Shown piece by piece: positions 9,165 through 64,000 of a DNA stretch of 64,000 nucleotides. The stretch's first letter is position 1. The number at the start of each line of letters is the position of its first letter. Made by a program: the position numbers and the translations under genes. This DNA is from Bacillota bacterium (GTDB taxonomy: Bacteria > Bacillota > DTU030), in contig JAAYTH010000014.1 of assembly GCA_012523785.1 (NCBI GenBank), positions 8,995 to 72,994 on the forward strand. The letters run 5' to 3'. The notes beneath the pieces were generated by a model. It did not search any database, was not told the origin of the DNA, and saw only the letters and a list, made by a program, of their open reading frames with translations.

Positions 9165-9375
9165 GGGGTGGGGTAGAGGCGCGGAGACTCATGAGTATCC
9201 GGTGGGAAAAGGGCATTGATGAACCCGGGAAAAGGGAGCTCCGCCGAAGTCCAGGGTCTGCTGCTGATCCTGCGGCTGGGCCTACATCAAAAAGGTGTAG
9301 GACTGTCATCGGGGTTGTTCGCCACATTCCCGATGGAGGGCTATCCCACGGCTTGGGTGGATGGGCGCGCTTAAG
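9165..9375 (+). ncRNA. lysine riboswitch (L-box) aptamer
   Basis: Conserved L-box blocks are present: AGAGGCGC, GAGUA, GGGAGCUCCGCCGAAG, ACUGUCA and GGAGGGCUAUC, with a P1-closing GGGCGCGC; lies directly upstream of lysA. Confidence 0.8.
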
Positions 9376-46953: not shown

Positions 46954-47972
46954 AAAGACTATCTGCGGCCTTTGGACCACCCGGGCAAGAGGGTGAGGTC
47001 CGGGACCTGTTGCGACGGGAAATAGGCCCCTATGTAGATAAGATCTGGACCGATGCTTTGGGTAACCTCTTGGCGGAAAAAAAGGGATTGGAAGAAGGGG
47101 CTCCCCGGGTTATGTTAACAGCCCATATGGATGAGGTTGCCCTTATGATAACCCATATAGAAGATACCGGCCTTCTGCGGTTTAAAACCATGGGGGGCAT
47201 TGACCAAAGAATATTAGTTTCCAAACCGGTTGTGGTGGGTGTGAAAAAAGTGCCGGGGGTTATAGGGTCGAAGGCGATACACCTGGTGACACCGGAGGAA
47301 AGGAAGAGGGCCTTCATGCTGCGGGATCTTTACCTAGACATCGGGGCCAGCTCCAGGGAAGAGGCAGAAAAACTGGTGACAGTTGGTGAAGGTGCAGTTT
47401 TTAACTCCTCTTTTTGCCTCCTAGGTGACAATCGGGTCCGGGCTAAGGCTTTAGACGACCGGGTGGGATGTTCTGCCTTGGTGGAGATTTTGCAAAGACA
47501 GTATCCGGTGACTTTAATCGCTGCCTTTACGGTACAGGAAGAGGTGGGCCTTAGGGGTGCTAGGGTGGCAGCCTTTGGCAAGGATATTGATTTAGCCCTT
47601 GTTTTGGAAGCAACTATGGCCTTTGATGTGCCTGATTCCAAACCCCATGAGACGGTGACCTACCTTGGAGGGGGCCCGGCCTTGACAATTATGGATCGCA
47701 CCCTCATTGCTGATCCTGCTTTGCTTGCTTCTTTGAGGAAAACGGCTCGGGAACGGAAAATTCCCTATCAACTACGCCGAACCGGTACCGGGGGAACCGA
47801 TGGTGGGGCTATCCATCTTACAGAAGATGGAATACCCACGGTGGTGATGGCTGTCCCCTGTCGTTATCTGCACTCTCCGGCTTCAGTCATAGAATTAAGT
47901 GACTACCACCATTTGGTGGATCTGACAAGTGCATTCTTGTCGGAGCTGACGGAAGGGAGGGCTGACAAATAA
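46944..47972 (+). CDS. M42 family aminopeptidase, paralog 3
   Basis: LTAHMDEVALMI, DDRVGC, QEEVGLRGA; GTG start overlapping the upstream gene. Confidence 0.8.
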   Translation: MLLKRLSAAFGPPGQEGEVRDLLRREIGPYVDKIWTDALGNLLAEKKGLEEGAPRVMLTAHMDEVALMITHIEDTGLLRFKTMGGIDQRILVSKPVVVGVKKVPGVIGSKAIHLVTPEERKRAFMLRDLYLDIGASSREEAEKLVTVGEGAVFNSSFCLLGDNRVRAKALDDRVGCSALVEILQRQYPVTLIAAFTVQEEVGLRGARVAAFGKDIDLALVLEATMAFDVPDSKPHETVTYLGGGPALTIMDRTLIADPALLASLRKTARERKIPYQLRRTGTGGTDGGAIHLTEDGIPTVVMAVPCRYLHSPASVIELSDYHHLVDLTSAFLSELTEGRADK

Positions 47973-48970
47973 TGAAAAACATATTGCAACGGCTAATATA
48001 TGCCTTCGGACCCTCGGGAAAGGAGGAGGAGATCCGTTCAGTTTTGAAAGAAGAACTGGCTGTTACAGGCCTGCAACTAAAGACCGATGCCCTGGGGAAT
48101 TTGATTGCTACCAAGCCGGGACAGGGTGGGCGCCTTATGTTGGCAGCCCATATGGATGAGATCGGTCTTTTAGTAACCCATATAGATGATAAGGGTTTCC
48201 TTCGCTTTGCCCCCATTGGGGGCCAGGACCCCAGGAATCTCCTCGGCTCCCGGGTGGTATTTGCCGATGGGACCATGGGCACAATTGGTGCTGAAACAAT
48301 CAAGGAAGCTAAAGACCTAAAGATAGACAAACTTTTTCTTGATATAGGTGCTGCCACCAGCGCCCAAGCCGAAGAAATAGTTCAAATTGGTTCCCCGGCG
48401 GTCTTTGCTCCTCATTTTAGCCATCAGGGGGATCGAATTATCGGTAAATCCCTTGATAACAGGGCCGGTTGTGCACTATTGCTGGCAGTCATCAGGGATC
48501 TGCCCCCGGTTGACTACCACCTGGATTTTGTTTTTACGGTGCAAGAAGAAGTGGGTCTACGGGGTGCCCGAACGGCGGCCTATCATCTTCATCCGGATCT
48601 GGCCTTGGCTGTGGATGTAACGCGAACCGGGGATACTCCTGAATCACCGCCTATGGCGGTTGAATTGGGTAAGGGACCTGCTATAAAAATTAAGGACACT
48701 TCCCTCATCAGCCATCCCCGGGTCCGGGACCTGTTAAAGGAGACTGCCCACTCCAGGGGAATTCCCTTCCAATTGGAAGTTCTTGCCCGGGGGGGCACTG
48801 ATGCCGGGTCCATTCATTTGAGCCGGGAAGGTGTTCCCAGTGGCGTCATTTCAATTCCCACCCGTTATGTGCACAGCCCGGCAGAGGTAATAGATTATCG
48901 GGACTTAACAAATGCTGCCAGCCTCTTATCTGCCTTTATGCAGCAGGAGCAATTATTTCCAGATTTATAA
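47972..48970 (+). CDS. M42 family aminopeptidase, paralog 4
   Basis: LAAHMDEIGLLV, DNRAGC, QEEVGLRGA; 1-nt stop/start overlap with the upstream gene. Confidence 0.8.
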   Translation: MKNILQRLIYAFGPSGKEEEIRSVLKEELAVTGLQLKTDALGNLIATKPGQGGRLMLAAHMDEIGLLVTHIDDKGFLRFAPIGGQDPRNLLGSRVVFADGTMGTIGAETIKEAKDLKIDKLFLDIGAATSAQAEEIVQIGSPAVFAPHFSHQGDRIIGKSLDNRAGCALLLAVIRDLPPVDYHLDFVFTVQEEVGLRGARTAAYHLHPDLALAVDVTRTGDTPESPPMAVELGKGPAIKIKDTSLISHPRVRDLLKETAHSRGIPFQLEVLARGGTDAGSIHLSREGVPSGVISIPTRYVHSPAEVIDYRDLTNAASLLSAFMQQEQLFPDL

Positions 48971-49105: not shown

Positions 49106-51193
49106 TTGAAAGAGTTTGGGATCCAACAATTGCGAAATGTGGGTTTGATATCCCACGGCGGTGCTGGCAAAACTACTTTAACTGAAGCAATGCTCTTTAA
49201 TTCCGGCGCTACAGATCGCCTGGGCCGCGTGGATGATGGTTCTTCGGTAATTGATTACGATCCAGATGAAATAAAAAGAAAGATTACCCTTAATACCACC
49301 TTAGCCCCTTGCCAATGGCGGGGAAACAAGATCAATGTGGTTGACACACCGGGGTATGCGGATTTTGTCGGTGATGTCAAGGGTTCACTGCGGGTGGTAG
49401 ATGGGGCTATTGTTCTGGTTTGTGCTGTCTCTGGTGTTGAAGTACAGACAGAAAAAGTATGGCACTATGCGGATAAGTACAATTTGCCCAGACTTGTTTT
49501 TGTTAATAAATTAGAGCGGGAGAATGCTAATTTTTTCAAGGCTCTGCAGCAAATCCAGGAACAATTGTCTGGAAAAGCCGTTGCTTTGAATATCCCCCTT
49601 GGTAGTGAGGATAATTTTAAGGGAATTATTGACTTGGTGAACATGCAGGCCCTCATTTATGATAATGAAAAGGGTAAAGGATTTACCACTGCCGAAATAC
49701 CGGCGGAGCTCCGGGGGGAAGCGGAAGAATATAGGGAAAAATTAATTGAGGCTATTGCAGAAACCGACGATGAATTGGTTATGAAGTATTTGGAGGGTGA
49801 ATCCTTCACCCCGGAAGAAATTAATGCGGGCCTGCGGGCGGGCACCCTGGCCCATGATATTGTCCCTGTCCTCTGTGGTTCTGCCTTGGCCAACATGGGC
49901 CTAGAACCACTTTTGGATACCGTTGTGGCCTGTTTGCCCTCCCCCGGAGATGTTGACGCTGTTGTTGGCAGTGACCCGGACACAGAGGAGGAAGTGGAGG
50001 TTGAATTGAGTAAGGATGGTCCTCTGGCAGCCCTGGTATTTAAGACCATGGCCGATCCCTTTGTCGGCAAGCTGACTTACTTCCGGGTTTATTCCGGGGT
50101 GTTTAACTCCGATAGTCAGGTTTACAATGTTAGTAAAAAAAAGATGGAACGGGTGGGACAACTGTTTATTCCCCGCGGCAAGGAACAGGTGGCGGTAAGG
50201 CACATTTCCGCCGGCGATATAGGTGCGGTGGCCCGGTTGCAAGAAACAAGTACTGGGGATACCATTGGTGAAAGGGATAGGCCAATTTTGCTGGCCCCGA
50301 TTGAATTTCCCCGCCCTTCGTACTCTGTAGCCCTTTTTGCCAAATCCAAGGGGGACGAAGATAAACTTGGCACCGGATTGGGAAGGCTGATGGAGGAGGA
50401 TCCAACCCTCACCGTAGCCCAAAATACTGAAACCAGGGAACTCATTCTCTCGGGTATGGGTGATGTTCACCTTGATGTAACCCTGGAACGTTTAAAGCGG
50501 AAGTTCGGAGTAGAAGTAGATACGAAGGAACCCAAGATACCCTTTAGGGAGACTATCCGCAAGGCGGTAAAAGTTGAGGGTAGACACAAAAAACAAACCG
50601 GTGGGCACGGACAATATGGACATGTTTATATTGAAATGGAACCCTTAGCCGAAGGGGAAGGGTTTGTTTTTGAGGAAAGTATTTTTGGCGGTGCTGTTCC
50701 TAGACAGTACATCCCGGCTGTGGAAAAGGGTATCCGGGAGGCTATGGAGGAAGGTATTTTGGCCGGATATCCGGTGGTGGATTTTAAGGTCAACCTCTAT
50801 GATGGCTCCTATCACAGTGTCGATTCTTCGGAAATGGCCTTTAAAATAGCGGCCATACAGGCTTTCCGGAAGGCAATGGAAGAAGCTCAACCGGTATTGT
50901 TAGAACCCATAATGAATCTGGAGGTACTGGTACCGGATGCCTACATGGGTGATGTTATAGGTGACCTCAACTCTAAGCGGGGCAGGATCCTGGGGATGGA
51001 ACCCCAAGATGGGGAACAGCTGGTAAAGGCCCAGGCCCCCCTGACGGAATTATCCAAGTATGCTATTGATTTGAGATCCCTCACCCAGGGCCGGGGAAGT
51101 TTTGAAATGTCCTTTGACCACTATGAAGAAGTGCCAGCCCGTACTGCTGAAAATATTATCGTCCAAGCCCAGAAGGAAAGAGAAGGGGATTAG
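49106..51193 (+). CDS. EF-G-like translational GTPase paralog with non-canonical G motifs
   Basis: EF-G five-domain architecture. G1 is SHGGAGKTT. Switch II reads DTPGY, with Tyr in place of the catalytic His. G4 reads NKLE instead of NKxD. Likely TTG start at 49106 with a GGGGGAG RBS; the track ORF begins at 49070. Confidence 0.75.
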   Translation: MKEFGIQQLRNVGLISHGGAGKTTLTEAMLFNSGATDRLGRVDDGSSVIDYDPDEIKRKITLNTTLAPCQWRGNKINVVDTPGYADFVGDVKGSLRVVDGAIVLVCAVSGVEVQTEKVWHYADKYNLPRLVFVNKLERENANFFKALQQIQEQLSGKAVALNIPLGSEDNFKGIIDLVNMQALIYDNEKGKGFTTAEIPAELRGEAEEYREKLIEAIAETDDELVMKYLEGESFTPEEINAGLRAGTLAHDIVPVLCGSALANMGLEPLLDTVVACLPSPGDVDAVVGSDPDTEEEVEVELSKDGPLAALVFKTMADPFVGKLTYFRVYSGVFNSDSQVYNVSKKKMERVGQLFIPRGKEQVAVRHISAGDIGAVARLQETSTGDTIGERDRPILLAPIEFPRPSYSVALFAKSKGDEDKLGTGLGRLMEEDPTLTVAQNTETRELILSGMGDVHLDVTLERLKRKFGVEVDTKEPKIPFRETIRKAVKVEGRHKKQTGGHGQYGHVYIEMEPLAEGEGFVFEESIFGGAVPRQYIPAVEKGIREAMEEGILAGYPVVDFKVNLYDGSYHSVDSSEMAFKIAAIQAFRKAMEEAQPVLLEPIMNLEVLVPDAYMGDVIGDLNSKRGRILGMEPQDGEQLVKAQAPLTELSKYAIDLRSLTQGRGSFEMSFDHYEEVPARTAENIIVQAQKEREGD

Positions 51194-51218
51194 GGCCGGG
51201 GGTGGGGAGGAAGGTGCC

Positions 51219-51986
51219 ATGCACATACTAGTGACCAATGATGATGGTATTAATGCATCTGGAATAATTAGCCTTGTTAGTGAATTCACCCCCATTGCCA
51301 AGGTAACTGTTGTGGCCCCGGATCGGGAACGCAGTGCTACCGGCCATGCTATTACCTTCCATAAACCACTGCGGGCCGAGGAAGTTCAGCTGGATGTGGA
51401 GGGGGGAGGAAGGGCTTGGGCCGTCAATGGAACGCCCAGCGATTGTGTTAAGCTGGCCATAAAGGCTCTGCTCCCTGAGCCCCCCGATCTAATTGTCTCC
51501 GGGATAAACCGGGGCCCAAATCTGGGAACAGATGTCTTATATTCAGGAACCGTGTCTGCAGCCATTGAGGGCATCTTATTTGGTATTCCTTCCATTGCCG
51601 TTTCCCTGGCGGCCTTTACCGAATGTTCCTTTGCTACTGCCGCCCATATTACCAGAACCTTAATTCATCAAATAGGGGGCAGATCCCTACCCCCCCACAC
51701 TTTATTGAATGTCAATATTCCCCCGCTACCATTGCATAAATTGCGCGGTATAAAGATATCACGCCTTGGGTTTAGGGAGTATAAAAACATTTTTGAAGAA
51801 AGGCGCGATCCCCGGGGACAAATTTATTATTGGCTGGGGGGGCAAGTGGTGGATTGTGATGAGGAATCGGTAGAGGTTGATATTGGAGCGGTTAAAAAGG
51901 GGTATGTTTCTATAACTCCGGTCCATTTTGATCTGACCAATTATGAACTATTGGAGGAAGTCAAAACCTGGGATCTTTCTCTTTAG
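51219..51986 (+). CDS. surE: 5'/3'-nucleotidase SurE
   Basis: SurE N-terminus (ILVTNDDGI). Confidence 0.85.
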   Translation: MHILVTNDDGINASGIISLVSEFTPIAKVTVVAPDRERSATGHAITFHKPLRAEEVQLDVEGGGRAWAVNGTPSDCVKLAIKALLPEPPDLIVSGINRGPNLGTDVLYSGTVSAAIEGILFGIPSIAVSLAAFTECSFATAAHITRTLIHQIGGRSLPPHTLLNVNIPPLPLHKLRGIKISRLGFREYKNIFEERRDPRGQIYYWLGGQVVDCDEESVEVDIGAVKKGYVSITPVHFDLTNYELLEEVKTWDLSL

Positions 51987-54746: not shown

Positions 54747-55511
54747 ATGCACCCGGTTATCGGCATCACCTGCGCCCTCCAAAAGCCGGATGGCACAGGA
54801 CCGGTACCTACCAGCTTGACACCCAACTATTATGTGAACAGTGATTACTGTACGGCCGTGGAAGAGGTTGGCGCGATTCCCGTCCTAGTACCGATGGTGC
54901 AAAACAAAACTGTAATTGCCAAAATGCTAAAAAATTTAGACGCTATTATTTTTTCTGGGGGAGGCAACGCATTACCAAAGGAGGTGACCGAACAACCCTA
55001 CCTACCTAGTCTGGCGGAACAAAATCCGGAACGCTATCGTTTTGATTCCTATCTTATTCAACAGGTGCTGGACCTGGACATGCCTATGATAGGGATCTGC
55101 CGCGGACATCAGATGATCAATGAAGTAATGGGCGGAACAATCTATTCCAAGATCCAGACCGAGATTCCTGGGGCAAAATCCCATCATCAAGGGGATGTTT
55201 CGGGCGCGAAAGCCTGGCATGCAATAGACATCACGGAGGAATCTAAATTATCCCATATTTTAGGGGAAAATAATATTGAAGTAAACAGTTTCCATAATCA
55301 ATCTGTTTTTAAGGAAGGCAAGGGTCTAAAAATAGTAGCCCGGGCCCCCGATGGTGTGGTAGAGGCTATAGAAAGCCGGGAACATTCTTTTGTTTTTGGA
55401 GTGCAATTTCATCCGGAGAAAATGCGGGATGAAGCCTTTTCCCAAAGATTTTTTACTGCCTTTAGAGAAGCGGCCAATAATTATCGGGACTCAAAGGAAC
55501 CAAATAGATAA
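54747..55511 (+). CDS. gamma-glutamyl-gamma-aminobutyrate hydrolase family protein (class I glutamine amidotransferase, peptidase C26)
   Basis: GICRGHQ catalytic Cys motif and His near the C-terminus. Confidence 0.75.
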   Translation: MHPVIGITCALQKPDGTGPVPTSLTPNYYVNSDYCTAVEEVGAIPVLVPMVQNKTVIAKMLKNLDAIIFSGGGNALPKEVTEQPYLPSLAEQNPERYRFDSYLIQQVLDLDMPMIGICRGHQMINEVMGGTIYSKIQTEIPGAKSHHQGDVSGAKAWHAIDITEESKLSHILGENNIEVNSFHNQSVFKEGKGLKIVARAPDGVVEAIESREHSFVFGVQFHPEKMRDEAFSQRFFTAFREAANNYRDSKEPNR

Positions 55512-55719
55512 ATAAGTGCGGATCCCCGGTAGGTCGGGCCAATACTGGACAAATATGATATAATCCGTATAGAAAAAAACCAGCGACTATTTACTCGTCC
55601 TTGAACTTATGGGCCTGGTATTTCCGGGTACTTACAAATAAAAATAAAGGAGGGATAATGAGGGGGAACGAAGGTAGATACAAGGCATTGAGTATTCTGT
55701 CTCAAAAGGAGGTATATTA

Positions 55720-57309
55720 GTGGACAGAAAATGGTTAATTGTGGTTGCTTTTGTGCTGATTGCAGCCCTTTTTGGGGGAGTATTGGGCGGATGCGGGCCA
55801 GCAGACGAAGTAGAAGAAGAGGAACCTAAAACACTTATCGTCGGCTTAGCCCAGTCGGTTCTTACCCTAGATCCGGCCATGCATAGGGATCGGACATCAG
55901 AAACAGTTATCAGGAATATGTTTGACGGCTTGGTAACCAGGACCACCTCGATGGACATTGTTCCTGAAATTGCAGAATCATATACCCAGTTGACCCCGAC
56001 GGAATGGGAGTTTAAGATTCGGGAAGGAATAACCTTTCACAATGGTGACCCTTTGACTGCGGATGATGTTGAATTTACCTTTATGCGTATTTTGACCGAA
56101 GGCGCCGTTGACGGACAGTCTTCTCCGCGAAAGGGCCTCCTGGGCTCCCTGTTAAAGGTGGAAAAGACGGATGATTATACCGTTCTTTTTACCTTTGAAG
56201 AACCCTGGCCCATATTCCTCCGGATGCTGCCTCACCAGCAAATAGTGCCCAAGAACTACATCGAGGAACATGGCTCTGACTATTTTGCGGAAAACCCCAT
56301 CGGGGCTGGCCCCTTTAAGCTTGTTGAGGCAGCCCTGGATGAAAAAATTGTAATGGAACGGTTCGAAGATTATTACGGTGGCTCTCCTGAGATACCGCCA
56401 GTAGGGCCAGCCCAGGTTGATACTGCTATATTTGAAGTTATACCAGAAACTTCAACCCGAATTGCTGCTCTCCAAGCCGGCGATGTTCACATCATAGCTA
56501 ATGTGCCCACCCATATGGTTGATCAGCTGGAGGCGGATCCCAATATTGCGGTTAAGACCTGCACCGGGACCAACTTCTTCTCCGTAAGCCTGGATATGGA
56601 AGTCTATGAGCCCTTTAATGATGTACGGGTGCGCAAAGCCTTAAACCATGCCGTCGATGTAGATGAAATTATTGCTACAGTTATGGATGGCCTTGCCATA
56701 CGTTGCCCGGGCCCGTGTATTCCGGGTTCCTTTGGCTACAATGAGGCCATCACCGGGTATGATTACGATCCAGAAAAGGCAAAGGAACTGTTGGCCGAAG
56801 CAGGTTATCCAGAAGGAGAGGGTCTAAGTTTCGTCCTTGATACCCAGGATGCCCACAAGGACACAGCCGAAGCCATTGTCCAGTACCTAGAAGAGGTTGG
56901 CATAGATGTCTCGGTCCGGGTTTGGGACTGGGGCGTACTGAAGCCACTCCTGGATGAGGGCGGTGAAAGGGCGGCGGTATTCAGTAGCTGGGGGAACTCC
57001 ACCATGGAACCCCACGACCTTTTCGAGCCCAAGTTCGTATCCAAGCTAGATGATGTCCTGGGCCGTGGTAATTATTCCCGCTACAGCAACCCAGAATTTG
57101 ATGAACTCTTCTTTGAGACAACGGTGCTTATTGATGACAACGAGCGGATAGCAAATTATAAAATACTACAGGAGATGCTCTTTGAGGATGCTCCCGTTAT
57201 CTTTGTCTACACTCCCATGGTTGTAGAGGCCTGTTCGGCACAGGTGGAGAGATGGGAGCCGAGTCCCGACGGACGCATCAACCTCCATCGTGTAGGATTA
57301 AAAGAATAG
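55720..57309 (+). CDS. ABC transporter substrate-binding lipoprotein, family 5 (oligopeptide/dipeptide/nickel)
   Basis: Lipobox LGGC and SBP family 5 similarity; GTG start with an AAAGGAGG RBS. Confidence 0.8.
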   Translation: MDRKWLIVVAFVLIAALFGGVLGGCGPADEVEEEEPKTLIVGLAQSVLTLDPAMHRDRTSETVIRNMFDGLVTRTTSMDIVPEIAESYTQLTPTEWEFKIREGITFHNGDPLTADDVEFTFMRILTEGAVDGQSSPRKGLLGSLLKVEKTDDYTVLFTFEEPWPIFLRMLPHQQIVPKNYIEEHGSDYFAENPIGAGPFKLVEAALDEKIVMERFEDYYGGSPEIPPVGPAQVDTAIFEVIPETSTRIAALQAGDVHIIANVPTHMVDQLEADPNIAVKTCTGTNFFSVSLDMEVYEPFNDVRVRKALNHAVDVDEIIATVMDGLAIRCPGPCIPGSFGYNEAITGYDYDPEKAKELLAEAGYPEGEGLSFVLDTQDAHKDTAEAIVQYLEEVGIDVSVRVWDWGVLKPLLDEGGERAAVFSSWGNSTMEPHDLFEPKFVSKLDDVLGRGNYSRYSNPEFDELFFETTVLIDDNERIANYKILQEMLFEDAPVIFVYTPMVVEACSAQVERWEPSPDGRINLHRVGLKE

Positions 57310-57334
57310 GGTTTAAGCTCAAGTTGAAACAAAA

Positions 57335-57376
57335 AGGGGGAGACCCAGGTCTTCTGGGCTGCTCCCCCCCTTTTCC
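57335..57376 (+). terminator. intra-operon GC-rich hairpin plus T-tract (attenuating terminator between SBP and permease genes)
   Basis: GGGGGAG..CCCAG / CTGGG..CTCCCCC imperfect stem of about 13 bp, followed by TTTT. Confidence 0.55.
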
Positions 57377-57406
57377 GCAAATTTTACCGACAACGGGGGT
57401 GACGTT

Positions 57407-58417
57407 TTGAGGTTGGCGAGGGTTTTAGAAAGAGTATTTGTTGCCATTCCGGTTATGCTGGGGGTAGCCATTATCGTTTTTTTCTTTATGCGCCTTTCCC
57501 CTGGGGATCCGGTGGACTTGATGATGGGTGAGGCAGGCAGTGTTTCACCACGGGAAATGGAGGCCCTGGCAAGGGAGTTTCGCTTGGATGAACCCCTTCA
57601 TATGCAACTGTACCACTTTTTGGCTGGCCTTTTGAGGGGCGATTTGGGGAATTCCTTCGTAAAAAGAAAGCCTGTTGCCAGGCTTGTAAGGGAACATTTG
57701 CCGGCCACGGTAGAGTTGGCCATCGGTGCCCTTGTAATTGCTTTGGTCATTGCCATCCCGATAGGAATAATATCAGCGGTAAAACAGCATTCAATCTTGG
57801 ATCGGGTCTCAATGGCCGGAGCCTTTCTTGGTATTTCCATGCCCGCTTTTTGGATGGGTATAGTTCTTATCTTGGTGTTTTCGGTATACTGGCATGTATT
57901 CCCCTCCCACGGTAGATTACCCTTTGCTGTGGGTTTAAAAACCATCACGGGTTTTTATACTATAGACAGCATTTTGACTGGAAATTGGTCTGCCTTGGCC
58001 AGCACCCTGAAACATCTTTTTTTACCTTCCCTGACTCTGGGGGCTGGTACAGCAGCCACCATTGCCCGCATGACCCGTTCTAGCATGTTGGAAGTGCTGC
58101 GCCAAGATTATATTGTATTGGCTAGGGCTAAGGGATTGACTGAATATGCCGTTGTGGTGAAGCATGCACTACGCAATGCCTTGATACCTACCGTTACCAT
58201 TGTGGCACTCCAAATAGGTACTTTCCTAGGTGGAAATATGATTGTAGAAACTGTCTTCGGCTGGCCCGGCTTGGGACGCTTGGTAGTAGATGCTATTCAA
58301 CGGCGAGATTTTCCCTTGGTACAGGGGGCTGTTATTGTCTATGCCCTCACATTTGTCATGGCTAATCTCCTGGCTGATATTATCTACACCTTTGTTAATC
58401 CTAAGATTGAACTGTAG
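57407..58417 (+). CDS. ABC transporter permease (DppB/OppB type)
   Basis: BPD_transp_1 EAA-type loop; TTG start. Confidence 0.8.
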   Translation: MRLARVLERVFVAIPVMLGVAIIVFFFMRLSPGDPVDLMMGEAGSVSPREMEALAREFRLDEPLHMQLYHFLAGLLRGDLGNSFVKRKPVARLVREHLPATVELAIGALVIALVIAIPIGIISAVKQHSILDRVSMAGAFLGISMPAFWMGIVLILVFSVYWHVFPSHGRLPFAVGLKTITGFYTIDSILTGNWSALASTLKHLFLPSLTLGAGTAATIARMTRSSMLEVLRQDYIVLARAKGLTEYAVVVKHALRNALIPTVTIVALQIGTFLGGNMIVETVFGWPGLGRLVVDAIQRRDFPLVQGAVIVYALTFVMANLLADIIYTFVNPKIEL

Positions 58418-58432
58418 GAGAGGGGGAAGCCA

Positions 58433-59398
58433 ATGAAAGTAAACGAAACCAATGTGCATTTGGCACAGTTACCTACAACTGACCGGAGTCCACTACAGCA
58501 ACATTTATACCTCCTGGGTATAAAACTGCGGCTGCAGCGTCAAAACCTGGGGAATTTTTTCCGCCAGCTTAAACGCCATCCTACAGCTATGGTGGGTGCC
58601 ATAGTTGTAGTTCTGTATATACTAATGGCCATTTTTGCTCCCCTTTTAGTTCCCCATGATCCTTTTACAGGCATTCTTGGCAATAGAATCCTTCCACCTA
58701 AATGGTATGAAGGGGGAAGGCCCGAATATTTACTGGGCTGTGATGAACTGGGGAGGGACCTATTAAGCAGGATTATCTATGGAGCCCGTGTTTCCATTAG
58801 TGTAGGACTCATTTCAGTTACGGTATCGACTGTTATTGGTGTTACGGCCGGAATTGCGGCAGGCTATTACCGGGGCTTGTTTGATGAGATATTTTCCCGT
58901 TTTGCTGATCTACTGTTGGCGTTTCCATTTTTAATATTTGCTTTGGGGGTTATGGTGGCAACGGGGCCAGGATTTTGGAACTTGATTTTTGCCTTGTGTT
59001 TTAAGGGCTGGGTGGAGTTTTTCCGATTGGCCCGGGGAGAAACCCTCTCAGAGAAAACCAAAGAATATGTTGAGGCTGCCAAGGCCAGCGGCCAAGGCCA
59101 TCTAACTATTATGCTTTCTGAGATCATGCCCAATATTATTCACTCTGTTATCGTGTTGGGGACACTTAGAATGGGTTCTTTGATCATTACTGAGGCTTCC
59201 TTGAGCTTCTTAGGGCTTGGCGTAGGCACGAGAATTCCGGCTTGGGGGTCAATGATTTCCAGTGGGCGGCAGTACATGATGAATGCTTGGTGGATTTCCA
59301 CCCTGCCTGGTATGGCCCTCCTGCTACTGGTGTTGAGTATTAATCTCCTTGGGGAAGGCCTGCGGGATATTCTTGACCCGCGTTTGAAAATAGATTAG
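58433..59398 (+). CDS. ABC transporter permease (DppC/OppC type)
   Basis: DppC-like permease. Confidence 0.8.
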   Translation: MKVNETNVHLAQLPTTDRSPLQQHLYLLGIKLRLQRQNLGNFFRQLKRHPTAMVGAIVVVLYILMAIFAPLLVPHDPFTGILGNRILPPKWYEGGRPEYLLGCDELGRDLLSRIIYGARVSISVGLISVTVSTVIGVTAGIAAGYYRGLFDEIFSRFADLLLAFPFLIFALGVMVATGPGFWNLIFALCFKGWVEFFRLARGETLSEKTKEYVEAAKASGQGHLTIMLSEIMPNIIHSVIVLGTLRMGSLIITEASLSFLGLGVGTRIPAWGSMISSGRQYMMNAWWISTLPGMALLLLVLSINLLGEGLRDILDPRLKID

Positions 59399-59429
59399 GA
59401 GCTTTCATATTAAAGGATGTGAAAGAACG

Positions 59430-60431
59430 ATGTTGGTTATTAAAAATTTGAGCACTCACTTTCCCACCGAACGGGGTCTAGTCAAAGCCGTAAACAATGT
59501 CAGCCTTTCGCTGGCAACTGGTGAAATTTTGGGCCTAGTGGGTGAATCGGGCTGCGGCAAGAGTATGACCCTTCTATCTATTCTCAGATTAATACCTTTT
59601 CCCGGTAAAATTGTAGGTGGGGAAGTTTTCTTTAGAGGTAGTAATCTCCTGGAGAAGAAACCAGCAGAAATGCGTGCTTTACGGGGCCAAGACATCGCCA
59701 TGGTTTTTCAGGATCCCATGACCACCCTAAATCCTGTTTTTAAAGTAGGGGAGCAAATTGGAGAATCTCTACGAATTCACGGTGCCATGGGTAAAGAAAG
59801 TTTTCGCAGGAGATACGGTGATAATAAAAAAATTGCGGAAAAGGAACGGGTCCTGGAGTTAATGAAGGAAGTTGGGATCCCGTCTGTTGATGAACGCTAC
59901 CACGAATATCCTCACCAATTCAGCGGCGGGATGCAGCAGCGAGCCCTTATTGCCATTGCCCTTTCTTGTAATCCCCAGCTTTTATTGGCAGATGAACCGA
60001 CGACCGCCCTGGATGTAACCATTCAGGCCCAGATCCTTTCCCTACTGGAGCAGATCAACCGGGAACATGGCACAGGTATTATTTTAGTAACCCACGACTT
60101 GGGGGTTGCGGCTGAGTTTTGTCAGCGCATTGCTGTTATGTATGCCGGCAGTCTGGTGGAGGTAGGACCGACGGATGTGGTTATTGGGGAACCCCGGCAC
60201 CCGTATACGATAGGTTTGTTGCGGTCCATACCTAAGATTAGCAGTAAAAAGGAAAAGATCAAACCCATATATGGCAATGTGCCGGACTTGGCCGGGTTAG
60301 CAGGTGGCTGCCCCTTTGCCCCCCGGTGTGAAGTTGTGAAAGATGCCTGTTATTCCGAGGATATACCGATGCGGCAAATATCTGACGACCACCAAGTGCG
60401 CTGCTTAAATGTACCAGGGCACAGCGTCTAA
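59430..60431 (+). CDS. ABC transporter ATP-binding protein (DppD/OppD type)
   Basis: Walker A GESGCGKS and a C-terminal oligopeptide-ABC extension. Confidence 0.85.
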   Translation: MLVIKNLSTHFPTERGLVKAVNNVSLSLATGEILGLVGESGCGKSMTLLSILRLIPFPGKIVGGEVFFRGSNLLEKKPAEMRALRGQDIAMVFQDPMTTLNPVFKVGEQIGESLRIHGAMGKESFRRRYGDNKKIAEKERVLELMKEVGIPSVDERYHEYPHQFSGGMQQRALIAIALSCNPQLLLADEPTTALDVTIQAQILSLLEQINREHGTGIILVTHDLGVAAEFCQRIAVMYAGSLVEVGPTDVVIGEPRHPYTIGLLRSIPKISSKKEKIKPIYGNVPDLAGLAGGCPFAPRCEVVKDACYSEDIPMRQISDDHQVRCLNVPGHSV

Positions 60432-60447
60432 GAAAGGGGAGAAGTAT

Positions 60448-61440
60448 ATGACAGCTGCAGAACCCTTGGTAAAAACAAAGGGGCTGACAAAATATTTTAC
60501 CAGTAGGCGAAGTTTGGTTGCCAAGCTGGTGGCCCGCCAAAAAGATCATCTTATTAAGGCTGTTGATGATGTTAATCTGGATATTTACCCGGGGGAAACG
60601 TTGGGGCTTGTGGGGGAGAGTGGTTGTGGGAAAACTACCCTCGGGCGCACATTGATCAAGCTTTATGAACCCACATCCGGGGAGATTTTCTACCGTAATC
60701 AACTGGTACACGAACTGAAGGGGAGGGAGCTAATTGCCTTTCGAAAGGAGGCGCAGATTATTTTCCAAAACCCCTACGCCTCCCTCAATCCCCGGAAAAC
60801 TGTGCGAGATATTATTTCGGTCCCCCTACGCACCAGGGGGCTTCGGGAACCTAGGATAATAGAGGAGGAGATTCTCAATCTATTGCAAAGGGTTGGGCTG
60901 AGCCCCAGGCACATTGACAACTACCCCCACCAGTTTAGCGGCGGGCAGCGCCAGAGGATTGGTGTGGCCAGGGCTTTAGCCTTACAACCTAACTTTATTG
61001 TGGCTGATGAGCCGGTATCGGCACTGGATGTTTCAGTTCAAGCCCAAATTATCAACCTCTTGGAAGAACTACAAGAGGAATTTCAGTTAACTTACCTTTT
61101 TATTACCCATGACTTGAGTGTTGTTCATTATATCAGTGATCGGATTGCCGTCATGTATTTGGGGCATATTGTGGAAACAGCACCGACAATAACACTATTT
61201 GAGCGTCCCCTTCATCCCTATACCCAGGCTTTGCTTTCCGCTATTCCTAGTGTGGACAAGGGTTTTCGTCGCAAACGAATTATTCTGGAGGGTACAGTAC
61301 CTACTCCTTTGGATCCACCGCCGGGATGCCGTTTCCACACCCGGTGTTTCGCCAAACTTGGTGATGTTTGTACCCGTGTTACCCCCTCCTTGGTCGAAGT
61401 GGAGGATAATCATTTTGTTGCCTGCCATCATTTCAAATAG
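60448..61440 (+). CDS. ABC transporter ATP-binding protein (DppF/OppF type)
   Basis: Walker A GESGCGKTT. Confidence 0.85.
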   Translation: MTAAEPLVKTKGLTKYFTSRRSLVAKLVARQKDHLIKAVDDVNLDIYPGETLGLVGESGCGKTTLGRTLIKLYEPTSGEIFYRNQLVHELKGRELIAFRKEAQIIFQNPYASLNPRKTVRDIISVPLRTRGLREPRIIEEEILNLLQRVGLSPRHIDNYPHQFSGGQRQRIGVARALALQPNFIVADEPVSALDVSVQAQIINLLEELQEEFQLTYLFITHDLSVVHYISDRIAVMYLGHIVETAPTITLFERPLHPYTQALLSAIPSVDKGFRRKRIILEGTVPTPLDPPPGCRFHTRCFAKLGDVCTRVTPSLVEVEDNHFVACHHFK

Positions 61441-61468: not shown

Positions 61469-61496
61469 AGCACCCTGACCGGGGTGCTTTTTTTAT
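61469..61496 (+). terminator. rho-independent terminator after the ABC operon
   Basis: AGCACCC/GGGTGCT stem followed by an 8-T run. Confidence 0.7.
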
Positions 61497-61658
61497 TGCT
61501 TTTTTTGCCGTTAAAAAATATAAAGTTGTCGAAGGAAAGCCGCTTATTGGTTTTTCCAGCCTAAAAAAGGGATATTTGCACTGGTACAAATGGAAGGATT
61601 TAACAGGTGAAGGTAGTAATAGTAAAAACGAGGAATCTTAACTGGGGGAGGATTGTTT

Positions 61659-63602
61659 ATGGATAGAATTATTAGGTATGTATTAAATGAGAAAAACAGT
61701 AGGGTGCTTTATCCCCACCCCATCTCCAGCCAAATAAGGGAGCAGCTTCTGGAGGCAGCAGTAGGAGCACCAACAGCAACTGCATTACAGGCCTACAGTA
61801 TCATTGTTGTGGAAGATCCCCAGCAACGCCGGAGCTTACACCAAGTCTGCCAGTATCCATCGAATACAGAATCTCCCTTGCTTGTGGTCTTTTGTATTGA
61901 TTTATACCGAATAAAACATATTATTATAGAACAAGAAAAACCCGAACAAGATTTTCACCGGGATTGCCCCAATATATTTATGTTGGCAATTTGTGATGCT
62001 GTGGCGGCGGCCCAGGCCATGGTTACAACCGCCAAAAGGAAAGGCTTAGTGGCAGATTATTCGGGTACCATATTAAATAATGTGGGATGCGTTAGGAAAA
62101 TCCTTGCACTTCCCGAATATGTCTTTCCAATTGCAATGTTACGTTTGGGTTATCACCTGTCCTCCATAGAAAGGCAGCCGGCTTTAATAAACCCCATCCA
62201 TATTAATCGTTATGTTCATCCCGAGGGGAAAGAAACTGCGGAATATAAAAAATACTATCAATACCTTTTTGAAAGCTGTAGTGAATTGCAAGGGGATAGG
62301 GTGGCCGCCGAAGGTCGGGCTATGGATGTTTGGAAGGAATTAACCCACAGCGGTTTTTTTCGTAACATTAGGGAAAAGGATGGGAAAAAAACATACCAAA
62401 GAAGGAAATCAAATTTGGAAGAAATCCACCAAGTCATTCAACAGGCGCAAAAAATTAGCCGTAGACGAAAACAATATAATTTAAAAACTAACTTACTATA
62501 TGGTTTGGCCCGGTTCTATTTAATTAGAAAGCAGCCGGGAAGGGCCTTGAACTGTTTTTCAAAGGCCATACTTCTAATACCAGATGCAGCTGAACTATAC
62601 TGCTGTTTGGGTGCTACACACCAGCATTTGGGAAATATTGAGCGCTCCTTGCATTACTTTGAGAAGGCTGTGAGCTTGTGTAAGCGGGAACCTTATTTTT
62701 ATCTGTGGTTAGGAAAATGTCAACTGCTTCGGGGAGAAGGAGATGCGGCATTACAGTCACTGAATAAGGCCCTAGAACTCGATCCCACCTTCTTGGAGGC
62801 ATGGTTTGCAAAGGCGGCACTTTTGGAAAAAGAAATGGTGTGGGAAGGGGCACTTTATTGTTACCATAAGATAGAATCTTTGAAGCACCGGGATCACCAC
62901 CTGTACAACAACATGGCATTGGCATACCTAGGGTTGGGAAAATTAAAAGAGGCCCGGAAATACTGTGGAAAGGCACTGGATTTAAGGCCCAAAGACCCAA
63001 TAATTCTGGCCAACATAGGACTAATATTTTCCAAAATGGGCGAACATAAGAAGGCTATCGCTTGTTATAATAGGGCCTTAAAGGCCCAACCAGATAATGT
63101 TGATTTACTTAATAACAAAGGGTATTCTTTGCTAAAAATGGAATGTTACCAGGAGGCCTTGGCAATTTATGAACTGGCGTTGGAGTTGAAACCCGGTCTT
63201 CTAAGCGCTTTAGAGAACAAGGCTTCCTGTTTGACCCTTCTGGGGCGTACCAAAGAAGCACTCCATTGTTACAATGCAATCCTGCGGCAGCAACCCTCAG
63301 GGCCAACCGCCCTCAATAATAAAGCCCTCTGTTTGATAAAAATCGGTAAATATAAACAAGCATTAGATTACCATCAACAGGCCTTGAAGAATGATCCGGA
63401 AAATATATCTTTTCTCGGTAATACAGCAGCTTGCTTACTTAAGATGGAAAGATACAGTGAAGCATTAGTCCACTATGAACATGCCCTAAGATTGTATCCG
63501 GAGGAACCGGCATTGTTAAGTGGCAAGGGTGTTTGTCTAGATTATCTGGGACGTTTTGACGAAGCTGTAAATTGTTATAATCATGCCTTGAGGCTGGCAT
63601 AA
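61659..63602 (+). CDS. fusion protein: N-terminal nitroreductase-like (FMN oxidoreductase fold) domain + C-terminal ~10 TPR repeats
   Basis: N-terminal ~190 aa follow the nitroreductase family pattern (QAYSIIVVEDPQQRRSL ... LLVVFCIDLYR ... GLVADYSG). The C-terminal ~400 aa are canonical 34-aa TPR repeats. ATG 61659 has a GGGGGAGG RBS. Confidence 0.6.
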   Translation: MDRIIRYVLNEKNSRVLYPHPISSQIREQLLEAAVGAPTATALQAYSIIVVEDPQQRRSLHQVCQYPSNTESPLLVVFCIDLYRIKHIIIEQEKPEQDFHRDCPNIFMLAICDAVAAAQAMVTTAKRKGLVADYSGTILNNVGCVRKILALPEYVFPIAMLRLGYHLSSIERQPALINPIHINRYVHPEGKETAEYKKYYQYLFESCSELQGDRVAAEGRAMDVWKELTHSGFFRNIREKDGKKTYQRRKSNLEEIHQVIQQAQKISRRRKQYNLKTNLLYGLARFYLIRKQPGRALNCFSKAILLIPDAAELYCCLGATHQHLGNIERSLHYFEKAVSLCKREPYFYLWLGKCQLLRGEGDAALQSLNKALELDPTFLEAWFAKAALLEKEMVWEGALYCYHKIESLKHRDHHLYNNMALAYLGLGKLKEARKYCGKALDLRPKDPIILANIGLIFSKMGEHKKAIACYNRALKAQPDNVDLLNNKGYSLLKMECYQEALAIYELALELKPGLLSALENKASCLTLLGRTKEALHCYNAILRQQPSGPTALNNKALCLIKIGKYKQALDYHQQALKNDPENISFLGNTAACLLKMERYSEALVHYEHALRLYPEEPALLSGKGVCLDYLGRFDEAVNCYNHALRLA

Positions 63603-63623
63603 TTGGCAGGCAGGTTTTAAAAA

Positions 63624-63653
63624 ATGAAGTGTTTAGAAATGAAGTGTTTAGAA
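63624..63653. repeat. 2 x 15-nt perfect tandem direct repeat (atgaagtgtttagaa)
   Basis: Exact duplication in the intergenic DNA between the TPR gene and the tRNA cluster. Confidence 0.5.
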
Positions 63654-63662
63654 ATAATTTAA

Positions 63663-63684
63663 GCAGCGGTATAATCCCCGCTGC
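63663..63684 (-). terminator. hairpin terminator of the minus-strand tRNA operon
   Basis: GCAGCGG/CCGCTGC 7-bp stem followed by an A/T-rich tract on the minus strand, immediately downstream of tRNA-Gln. Confidence 0.5.
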
Positions 63685-63691
63685 CTGTTAC

Positions 63692-63766
63692 TGGTTGGGG
63701 CGGTAGGGGTCGAACCTACGCATACAGGATCCAAAGTCCCGTGCCTTACCGCTTGGCTACGCCCCA
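63692..63766 (-). tRNA. tRNA-Gln (anticodon UUG)
   Basis: Hand-folded: U1:A72, anticodon loop CTTTGGA, T-arm GTAGG-TTCGACC-CCTAC, CCA encoded. Confidence 0.8.
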
Positions 63767-63772
63767 ATATGG

Positions 63773-63859
63773 TGGTGGAGAGGGCTGGATTTGAACCAGC
63801 GAAGGCTTTGCCAGCAGATTTACAGTCTGCCCCCTTTGGCCGAACTTGGGTACCTCTCC
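63773..63859 (-). tRNA. tRNA-Tyr (anticodon GUA), class II long variable arm
   Basis: GGAGAGG acceptor, anticodon loop CTGTAAA, long variable arm and a TTCAAAT T-loop; close to bacterial tRNA-Tyr. Confidence 0.85.
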
Positions 63860-63871
63860 TTTTTAATGTAA

Positions 63872-63946
63872 TGGTGGGCCCACCTGGGATCGAACCAGGG
63901 ACCGACCGGTTATGAGCCGGCTGCTCTACCGCTGAGCTATGGGCCC
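63872..63946 (-). tRNA. tRNA with CAU anticodon (elongator Met or lysidine-modified Ile2; not initiator)
   Basis: G1:C72 acceptor, anticodon loop CTCATAA, and no 3-GC initiator signature in the anticodon stem. Confidence 0.8.
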
Positions 63947-63949
63947 GCG

Positions 63950-64000
63950 TGGTCGGAGCGACTGGATTTGAACCAGCGACCCCTTGCTCCCGAAGCAAGT
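63950..64000 (-). tRNA. tRNA-Pro (anticodon CGG), 3' portion only - truncated by window edge
   Basis: The reverse complement gives anticodon stem-loop CTTGC-TTCGGGA-GCAAG, T-arm GCTGG-TTCAAAT-CCAGT and acceptor 3' CGCTCCG-A-CCA, similar to the Pro(GGG) tRNA at 38777. Confidence 0.5.

Follow-up and report, generated by a model that had tools for sequence, protein, structure and literature searches.

The 64,000-nucleotide stretch of a Bacillota contig analysed here (the window) carries, next to a tRNA cluster, a gene in which a nitroreductase-like domain is joined to a long array of tetratricopeptide repeats (TPRs). The question raised by this locus is whether a flavin enzyme has been recruited into a larger protein complex, as the initial annotation proposed in evoking a flavin redox or BluB-like activity, or whether the fold is now used for something else. 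To our knowledge, proteins of the nitroreductase superfamily are nearly always regarded as FMN enzymes, and those of the NfsA type as stand-alone dimers. The coding sequence (61659..63602, + strand) is complete and encodes 647 aa followed by a TAA stop codon (63600-63602). Its ATG (61659) is situated 7 nt downstream of a Shine-Dalgarno sequence, GGGGGAGG (61644-61651). An identical protein is recorded at NCBI as NLP17656.1 under the name [quoted passage not shown].

In the protein, a nitroreductase fold (aa 1-236) is followed by a basic linker (aa 237-276) and by eleven TPRs (aa 277-647). Both families were matched in Pfam, confirming the two-domain architecture. PF00881 (Nitroreductase) was found at aa 18-165 with an E value of 3.8e-8 and a score of 34.1 bits vs a gathering cut-off of 23.5, and the same match is precomputed for all the fusion orthologues. 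The two strings initially assigned to the family pattern, QAYSIIVVEDPQQRRSL and LLVVFCIDLYR, are located at aa 44-60 and aa 74-84, respectively. The linker (62367..62486, + strand) is Lys/Arg-rich, as had been noticed, with 13 K/R vs 4 D/E. It contains one predicted helix (aa 253-268) and is the fastest-evolving part of the fusion protein (dN/dS 0.23-0.28).

The N-terminal domain (61659..62366, + strand) belongs to the NfsA/FRP/NfrA1 type. It is NfsA-like over its whole length. NfrA1 (5hdj) was matched in a search of PDB sequences (E 1.7e-22), and the AF2 model of the domain (pLDDT 82.9, pTM 0.78) displays the fold of the NfsA/FRP subgroup together with its C-terminal extension of ~60 aa, which closes with a conserved SGFF (aa 231-234). 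Foldseek superposition of this model on NfsA (7z0w) gave TM scores of 0.79/0.83, and the comparison with NfsA, FRP and NfrA1 gave 0.77-0.83 over 236-253 columns. The domain shares with E. coli NfsA (1f5v/7z0w), V. harveyi FRP (1bkj) and Bacillus NfrA1 (3n2s/5hdj) a common fold of ~240 residues at 23-26% identity, as well as the structural core D82, D107, G123, P146, P151, G158 and Y181. These relatives are stand-alone dimers of ~240 aa, whereas the fusion protein carries an additional linker and TPR tail of 410 residues. The NCBIfam equivalog for NfsA (NF008033) was reached with 74.9 bits only, vs a cut-off of 223 bits. A BluB-like identity was rejected: BluB (2isj) came 28th in the fold search (TM 0.55, 15% identity) and was absent from the sequence matches. 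The likeness to BluB is limited to the superfamily fold, the extension of the N-domain being of the NfsA type and not of the BluB type. The mycobacterial Acg-family proteins have a nitroreductase fold in which the flavin site is blocked or altered. They form a different subgroup devoid of TPR fusion, so that the resemblance is one of concept, homology being established only at the superfamily level.

The residues of the cofactor site were compared between seven fusion sequences, corresponding to six distinct orthologues, and 129 stand-alone relatives. Thirty alignment columns are conserved in at least 75% of the stand-alone proteins, and 23 of them are kept in at least five of the seven fusion sequences. 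The columns that are lost, i.e. kept in three fusion sequences at most, are S13, R15, Q67, G125, G130 and R169, and P160 is borderline (4/7). The N-terminal flavin-binding motif (61689..61703, + strand) is degenerate and reads E11-K12-N13-S14-R15 in the window protein vs H-R-S-I-R in NfsA. S13, present in 87% of the stand-alone proteins, is found in a single fusion sequence, P0003 (NNNKKKS). R15, present in 98% of them, is kept in three fusion sequences (RRRQQQQ) which all belong to the subclade of the window protein, and it is replaced by Q in the four others, which represent three of six distinct orthologues. A Gly-rich dimer-interface region had been recognized earlier. Its counterpart does exist at aa 129-137 (62043..62069, + strand) but this flavin-face loop is degenerate, with GLVADYSGT instead of the GLGxxYIGG of stand-alone proteins (NfsA G123-G131); G125 and G130, conserved in 91% and 95% of the latter, are each kept in two of the seven fusion sequences.

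A similar erosion affects the sites of phosphate binding. In HMMER alignments to 5hdj and 3n2s, the NfsA motif K167-P-R169 corresponds to E-R-Q-P-A at aa 171-175 (62169..62183, + strand). Both basic residues of the pair are gone: position 167 is a Q and position 169 is absent in the window protein, and R169, found in 83% of the stand-alone proteins, occurs in none of the seven fusion sequences. The loop that contacts the 2'-phosphate of NADPH (202-211, with R203) is gapped in all of them. The summed charge of positions 11, 12, 15, 167 and 169, which averages +3.97 in the stand-alone proteins (127 of 129 at +2 or more), is 0 to +1 in the fusions. In the window protein, K12, R15 and G130 are still present. 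Three pocket residues, E11, T41 and Q167, are near-fixed in the fusion clade, each in six of the seven sequences.

For FMN binding, the superfamily basically requires an N-terminal R/H, a Ser, an R/K and a further R/K (PMC6017928), and the alignment shows that the fusion clade does not possess this set of side chains. NADPH binding requires R15 and K167 (PMC8286842), and the pocket for the NADPH phosphate is formed by the 180-240 extension with R203 (PMC10953011; PMC9912195). This pocket, made of R203, the 202-211 loop, K167 and R15, is likewise not preserved. The redox interpretation of the initial annotation was conditional on the retention of the FMN-binding residues, and this retention largely fails: S13, R15, K167, R169, Q67, G130 and the NADPH loop are lost or variable, which speaks against a recruited flavin redox or BluB-like activity. 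On the basis of these alignments, we infer that the N-domain has lost flavin binding. The different orthologues have lost differing residues, in agreement with a relaxed constraint on the cofactor site. Members of the window subclade may nevertheless bind FMN or riboflavin weakly, as N13 could still form a hydrogen bond with the phosphate. In the other subclade, the change of S13 to K together with that of R15 to Q could be a compensatory shift of charge and not a decay, and the near-fixed E11, T41 and Q167 hint at a new constraint on the pocket rather than at pure relaxation.

The C-terminal part of the protein (62487..63599, + strand) consists of contiguous, gap-free repeats of 34 residues that run to the C-terminus. 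About ten canonical TPRs had been counted. The canonical 34-residue array stands but the number of repeats is eleven, Pfam TPR_1 accounting for 10 stretches (E 6e-66, 216 bits). The eleven repeats are in register, as expected for the TPR clan, whose helix-turn-helix repeats have their consensus at positions 4, 8, 20, 24, 27 and 32. Positions 4, 6, 8, 20 and 32 are the most conserved ones here, and the pLDDT of the AF2 model is ~90 or more over the array. The best fold match is the superhelix of human OGT (1w3b; TM 0.80, rmsd 3.6 Å, 365 columns, 26% identity). Sequence matches reach E values of 1e-29 to 1e-34, and consensus TPR proteins are matched as well. The array shares with OGT and plant SPINDLY a long unbroken series of canonical 34-residue repeats with an Asn at position 6, which forms a ladder on the concave face of OGT. 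This ladder anchors peptide backbones in OGT (PMC11145291). In the fusion protein, the Asn is invariant in repeats 5-10 (N418, N452, N486, N520, N554 and N588), and a putative Asn ladder could line the concave face of an OGT/SPY-type superhelix; Asn at position 6 belongs to the general TPR consensus, so this ladder is not specific evidence. OGT combines 13 repeats with a GT41 glycosyltransferase domain, whereas the fusion protein has 11 repeats and no GT41, and its TPRs, unlike those of OGT, are associated with an N-terminal nitroreductase fold. No glycosyltransferase domain was present in the Pfam or NCBIfam results for the fusion protein, which ends with the last TPR at aa 647.

Both domains are under purifying selection but do not evolve at the same rate. 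The dN/dS ratio is ~0.2 for the N-domain and 0.07-0.14 for the TPR array, which is about twice as constrained. This pattern indicates that the fold of the N-domain is maintained and that the tightest constraint is exerted on the TPR array. A dN/dS value of 0.2 is also compatible with an enzyme.

The gene is monocistronic and adjoins the tRNA cluster, as first described. Hairpins do flank it on both sides but they are not terminators of its own. The upstream one (61469..61488, + strand), an intrinsic terminator hairpin with its T-run, ends the Opp/Dpp ABC operon (55720-61440), and its position leaves the fusion gene transcriptionally isolated. The downstream one (63661..63686) is a GC-rich hairpin located between the fusion gene and the convergent tRNA Gln-Tyr-Met(-Pro) operon. 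It is kept in the orthologous loci, lacks a T-run on the + strand and probably serves as a terminator common to the fusion gene and the tRNA operon. The 5' region (61556..61658, + strand) is conserved at all orthologous loci, including one whose protein shares 46% identity, and contains, ahead of the Shine-Dalgarno sequence, the conserved blocks GATATTTGC, TGGAAGGAwwTAACA and GGTAGTAATAGTAA. It is probably a promoter or an operator. No covarying RNA structure was found in the conserved upstream 100 nt, and Rfam gave no credible match in the upstream region (a single hit below threshold, with an E value of 0.61, which covers the terminator hairpin); a riboswitch or another structured leader in the 5' UTR was discarded on these grounds.

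Exhaustive and profile searches recovered five or six distinct orthologues among ~15 billion proteins, all of them from MAGs or metagenomes of uncultured Bacillota, with one MAG series originating from a thermophilic anaerobic digester. A word-indexed search with the N-domain returned one match and missed the orthologues. The fusion is therefore rare, and it is also unannotated, the sole named copy (NLP17656.1) being described by its TPRs only. A search of the literature for nitroreductase-TPR fusions or nitroreductase pseudoenzymes yielded nothing relevant. The orthologous loci show a conserved synteny beside the tRNA cluster, and the occurrence of six distinct orthologues in this context is the sign of a stable, vertically inherited fusion. 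The synteny reflects the close relatedness of the loci. Around the gene lie MtnA, MtaD, a C26 amidotransferase, the Opp operon and tRNAs. The Opp/Dpp operon is directly upstream in five of the six locus types (judged by ORF sizes alone for L006 and L011) and is missing at L001. A functional tie to these neighbours was not retained, since hairpins enclose the gene on both sides and the Opp block proves dispensable, and the gene neighbourhood provided no clue to a binding partner. The PADLOC defence models gave weak, generic TPR matches only (39 bits at most) and the gene lies in a housekeeping synteny; a role in anti-phage defence was rejected.

Since most of the residues that hold FMN and NADPH are lost, a protein-binding scaffold is likelier than a recruited redox enzyme. 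We propose, with a probability of about 0.5, that the N-domain is a non-catalytic NfsA-fold module for dimerisation or ligand binding that bears two peptide-binding TPR arms. According to this model, the basic linker would connect a whole NfsA-type nitroreductase, which has kept its fold but not its FMN and NADPH sites, to a superhelix of 11 OGT-like TPRs. The NfsA-like head would form the intertwined homodimer typical of the fold, hydride transfer being lost, and the homodimer would display two TPR arms. Each arm would hold extended peptide segments of partner proteins on its concave face, along the invariant Asn ladder. Dimerisation, a flavin-free state, the binding of peptides and the partners themselves are thus predicted properties, and there is about an even chance that the fusion protein is a cytoplasmic, lineage-specific scaffold.

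Other explanations must be weighed against this scaffold. The N-domain could be an active FMN-dependent NAD(P)H oxidoreductase or flavin reductase, its TPR arm docking onto a partner in the way FRP hands reduced flavin to luciferase. The complete NfsA fold with its C-terminal extension, the purifying selection on the N-domain (dN/dS ~0.2), the PF00881 score above the gathering threshold and the presence of K12, R15 and G130 in the window subclade are compatible with such an enzyme. We nevertheless hold it to be doubtful: orthologues are expected to share their function, yet the catalytic residues are not common to them, the almost universal R15 being a Q in four of the seven sequences, and to this are added the loss of S13, Q67 and R169, the Q at position 167, the Glu at position 11, the absence of the NADPH 2'-phosphate loop, a pocket charge of 0 to +1 vs ~+4 in stand-alone proteins and an NfsA equivalog score far under its cut-off. 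Alternatively, the former flavin pocket could have become a sensor for a small molecule (a flavin lacking its phosphate, a quinone, a nitroaromatic or some other metabolite) that alters how the TPR arms engage partners, making the protein a one-component signalling adaptor. The new near-fixed residues of the pocket and the purifying selection on the N-domain agree with a sensor, and the loss of positive charge suits a ligand free of phosphate. However, a single conserved ligand is hard to reconcile with a pocket that differs at most positions from one subclade to the other, the TPRs are the only output domain and no regulator or target gene is linked at the loci, so we regard this sensor as unlikely. 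A flavin-free, ligand-gated dimerisation switch, whose pocket, rebuilt around E11, T41 and Q167 and deprived of its phosphate-binding charges, would sense a small redox-active or aromatic metabolite and control binding by the two TPR arms, is a more far-reaching proposal and seems improbable as well.

The vicinity of the Opp transporter and a mini-ORF of 12 codons located 3' of the window gene (MKCLEMKCLEII, about 63625-63663) also evoke a cytoplasmic receptor of the RRNPP type, in which the TPRs would sense oligopeptides imported by the adjacent transporter and a downstream gene would encode the pro-peptide. This candidate was rejected and we give it very little credence. The Opp operon is cut off from the fusion gene by a terminator and is not found at L001; the mini-ORF arose from a window-specific 15-nt tandem duplication, which elsewhere occurs only in L003, a 99%-identical copy of the window gene, and the remaining orthologous loci lack it. 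Moreover, the repeats are canonical TPRs resembling those of OGT rather than the degenerate ones of the RRNPP type, and Pfam detected neither an HTH nor a phosphatase effector domain. Finally, the fusion could be an artefact of assembly or gene calling made of two genes, as suggested by one JGI contig that encodes a "stand-alone" N-domain of 188 aa (P0184). P0184 is an L006-type gene broken by a frameshift, in an error-prone contig whose neighbouring genes are fragmented too, and it was dismissed as a true stand-alone version of the degenerate domain. A continuous ORF of 642-648 aa recurs in at least seven independent assemblies, including a 45-kb NCBI MAG contig and a 141-kb metagenome contig; it is therefore not an assembly artefact, and the probability of this explanation is negligible.

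If the scaffold reading is correct, the fusion protein would be a clean natural case in which an NfsA fold has been retained for its structure, i.e. dimerisation or ligand binding, after decay of its catalytic site and then wired to a large protein-interaction module. Should the switch reading hold instead, it would represent a one-component signalling architecture that has not been described before and, within the nitroreductase superfamily, the first adaptor derived from a pseudoenzyme. In practice the impact is modest, the family being tiny, present in uncultured Bacillota known from metagenomes only and devoid of functional context. For automated annotation, these results call for caution, as a match to the "nitroreductase" domain probably does not indicate nitroreduction in this family.

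The ORF at 61659-63602 (+ strand) encodes a product of 647 aa, in which a nitroreductase domain and a TPR array are joined in one reading frame, as the Pfam PF00881 (Nitroreductase) match over aa 18-165 (E 3.8e-8, 34.1 bits vs a cut-off of 23.5) and the TPR_1 match (E 6e-66, 10 stretches) confirm far above chance. The sequence strings quoted in the initial annotation were recovered in this product. The ATG start codon follows the strong Shine-Dalgarno motif GGGGGAGG by 7 nt; a TTG at 61653 is too near this motif to serve as the start. The Lys/Arg-rich linker described initially corresponds to aa 237-276 (13 K/R vs 4 D/E) and precedes the repeats, which had been counted as about ten; the array itself stands but the 34-residue register lays out 11 TPRs without gaps, from aa 277 to the C-terminus. 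The gene had also been credited with its own terminators on both sides. Hairpins are indeed present, but neither is its own: the upstream one (61469-61488) is the terminator of the Opp operon, and the downstream one (63661-63686, no T-run on the + strand) is common to the fusion gene and the convergent tRNA operon.

The N-terminal domain is of the NfsA/FRP/NfrA1 subgroup. Among NCBIfam nitroreductase models it matched NfsA NF008033 best (aa 1-203), with a score of 74.9 bits that is far under the 223-bit equivalog cut-off, and its best solved relatives were B. megaterium NfrA1 (E 1.7e-22), B. subtilis NfrA1, YcnD, V. harveyi FRP and E. coli NfsA. The AlphaFold2 model of aa 1-245, built from a 25-sequence alignment (pLDDT 82.9, pTM 0.78), matched NfsA, FRP and NfrA1 with TM 0.77-0.83 across 236-253 columns. 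BluB ranked only 28th by fold (TM 0.55), and the BluB-like activity suggested earlier is not supported. The fused partner is an entire NfsA-like protein, including the C-terminal extension of the subgroup, and ends in a conserved SGFF where NfsA has its C-terminal QGW.

To assess the cofactor site, the fusion proteins and E. coli NfsA were aligned with 129 stand-alone relatives of 200-300 aa taken from the exhaustive N-domain search. The NfsA numbering used here agrees with the residues named in the literature. In the stand-alones, thirty columns reached a conservation of 75% or more, and 23 of them, core positions such as D82, D107, G123, P146, P151, G158 and Y181, were retained in at least five of the seven fusion sequences. 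The lost positions are S13 (87% in stand-alones; N,N,N,K,K,K,S in the fusion clade), R15 (98%; R,R,R,Q,Q,Q,Q), Q67 (84%; retained in 1/7), G125 (91%; 2/7), G130 (95%; 2/7) and R169 (83%; 0/7), P160 being borderline (4/7). Position 11, normally R or H, is Glu and position 167 is Gln, each in 6/7 sequences, and the R203-bearing loop is gapped. Pairwise HMMER alignments with 5hdj and 3n2s gave the same equivalences. Over positions 11, 12, 15, 167 and 169, the charges add up to +3.97 on average in the stand-alones (at least +2 in 127 of 129) and to 0 to +1 in the fusion clade. The Gly-rich segment noticed initially has a counterpart, but a degenerate one (GLVADYSGT vs GLGxxYIGG in relatives).

According to Miller and colleagues, the superfamily core requires an Arg/His for the phosphate of FMN, a Ser and two Arg/Lys residues, one of which is at flavin N1-O2 (PMC6017928). 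NADPH binding by FRP needs R15 and K167, both of which contact ligands in NfsA (PMC8286842), and the NADPH 2'-phosphate pocket is formed by R203 and the 202-211 loop (PMC9912195; PMC10953011). As judged from these residues, the proposed recruitment of a flavin redox activity is not supported, S13, R15, Q67, R169 and the R203 loop being lost or variable. Which residues are lost differs between orthologues, a pattern more in keeping with relaxed constraint at the ancestral site than with another, conserved mode of FMN binding. In the window protein itself the FMN-binding set is partly kept (R15 and K12, and also G130), but S13 and R169 are replaced or absent and position 167 is Gln. Three observations make residual or altered ligand binding conceivable: K12, R15 and G130 are retained here, the S13K change found with R15Q in one of the subclades could be compensatory, and E11, T41 and Q167 are nearly fixed in the fusion clade.

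In the full-length AlphaFold2 model, pLDDT is at least 90 in repeats 4-11 and the linker is disordered. The best solved match of the array was the TPR superhelix of human OGT (1w3b; TM 0.80, rmsd 3.6 Å, 365 columns, 26% identity), followed by SPINDLY and designed consensus TPR superhelices, and sequence searches concur. Unlike in OGT, no domain was found C-terminal of the repeats, glycosyltransferase included. The Asn at canonical TPR position 6, which also belongs to the general TPR consensus, is invariant in repeats 5-10 of all orthologues. In OGT, the Asn ladder makes bidentate contacts to the backbone of extended lumen-bound peptides (PMC11145291), and by analogy these features support, without proving, an OGT-like peptide-binding mode. 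Ten Cys are also invariant among orthologues (C315, C316, C401, C436, C524, C537, C558, C592, C626 and C639; window 62601-63575, aa 315-639), most of them at TPR positions 10 and 23; OGT TPRs likewise have C23-Y24.

Nei-Gojobori dN/dS in the unsaturated pairs (window vs L008 and L009; L010 vs L006, all orthologous loci) was 0.19-0.24 for the nitroreductase domain, 0.23-0.28 for the linker and 0.07-0.14 for the TPR array. Identity between the window protein and its most distant orthologue was 39%, 19% and 55%, respectively. The head is kept as a folded, useful domain, and the array is the most constrained part, foremost repeats 7-9 and 11, with 47-65% of columns invariant.

Searching 1.84 billion cluster representatives exhaustively with the N-domain (HMMER) yielded 963 relatives. 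Among the best 150 of these, two have about 645 aa (P0002, 99% identity; P0003, 37%), the remainder being proteins of about 250 aa and a few unrelated AraC, FolD-like or PNP-like fusions. The hits in a profile search covering 5.8 billion proteins were P0152 (75%), P0153 (67%), P0154 (51%) and P0003 (46%), after which the score falls from 819 to 222 bits at ordinary TPR proteins without PF00881. A search with a profile of their own N-domains missed the full-length P0002, P0003 and P0152-P0154 yet returned weaker stand-alones, for which the HMMER bias filter or the way candidates are selected may be responsible. A further orthologue, L006 (53%), came from the GTDB species set, in the Bacillota MAG AS04akNAM_96; a thermophilic anaerobic digester was the source of other MAGs in this series (PMC10215811). 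The JGI metagenome scan yielded L011, a single full-length locus nearly identical to P0154, and 79 loci matching the TPR part only. P0184 (188 aa; L091 1839-2405, JGI 3300012949), a candidate stand-alone degenerate domain, proved to be a frameshifted L006-type fusion gene, on a contig where the neighboring ABC ATPase genes are fragmented as well. The window protein is identical to NLP17656.1, named in NCBI 'MAG: tetratricopeptide repeat protein [Firmicutes bacterium]'; the fusion is rare and is not annotated as such.

The gene order MtnA, MtaD, C26 amidotransferase, Opp operon and fusion gene is conserved. The fusion is real, vertically inherited and limited to a narrow uncultured lineage. Its location beside a tRNA cluster was confirmed: tRNA Gln(ttg)-Tyr(gta)-Met(cat)-Pro(cgg) is convergent with it at every sufficiently long locus (window 63692-64000, − strand, the fourth tRNA, 63953-64000, being cut by the window end; L001 11959-12294; L006 8675-9001; L011 7979-8310). 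The C26 glutamine amidotransferase and five-gene Opp/Dpp ABC operon (window 54747-61440) lie between MtaD and the fusion gene, likewise in L008, and ORFs matching them in size occupy the same place in L006 and L011. In L001 (8537-10001) this block is missing and MtaD is directly 5' of the fusion gene, the block behaving as an indel of about 6.7 kb within conserved synteny. Further upstream, three similar-sized tandem ORFs (45895-48970, +), of which the first, the one scanned, is an M42 aminopeptidase, are followed by EF-G, MtnA and MtaD, preceded by a further unannotated ORF (51102-51986); in L001 the corresponding position is occupied by three M42 genes, and SurE lies between EF-G and MtnA. 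A lysine riboswitch (RF00168, 108.6 bits; 9166-9351, +) precedes a 446-aa ORF (9469-10809).

About 100 nt before the start codon (61556-61658) are conserved in all orthologous loci, the one of 46% protein identity included, even where synonymous sites are saturated; the conserved blocks are GATATTTGC, TGGAAGGAwwTAACA and GGTAGTAATAGTAA. As this region showed neither RNA covariation nor a credible Rfam match (the sole sub-threshold hit, E 0.61, covers the Opp terminator hairpin), it probably acts as a promoter or operator. It contains two candidate promoter sequences: TTAACA-17-TAAAAA, and a sigma-H-like -35 element with a -10 one base off the Bacillus sigma-H consensus (RnAGGAwwT, 14 nt, G(T/A)AAT). 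The stretch from the stop codon to the convergent hairpin contains a perfect 15-nt tandem repeat, AAATGAAGTGTTTAG (2.3 copies, 63622-63655), which makes a 12-codon ORF, MKCLEMKCLEII; the unit is single and without ATG in L008, missing from more distant loci and identically duplicated in L003, the 99%-identical copy of the window gene.

We give a probability of about 0.5 to a non-catalytic reading of the fusion protein, in which the NfsA-fold head would supply the intertwined dimer typical of the fold and might retain a remnant of a ligand pocket; this dimer would bear two OGT-like TPR arms, which could clamp extended segments of partner proteins. An active flavoenzyme docked through its TPRs is rather unlikely given the loss of R15, S13, Q67, R169 and the NADPH loop, and a ligand-gated sensor-adaptor seems less probable still. 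The neighboring Opp operon might suggest an RRNPP-like receptor of imported peptides, but the operon is dispensable (missing in L001) and the candidate downstream mini-ORF is a tandem duplication specific to the window and L003, so we consider this very improbable. An assembly or gene-calling artefact is refuted by the independent assemblies that carry the fusion.

A PADLOC search returned generic TPR matches only. The importance of the finding is modest because neither genomic context nor literature indicates a pathway. On the sequence evidence, the decayed NfsA fold most likely serves in scaffolding.
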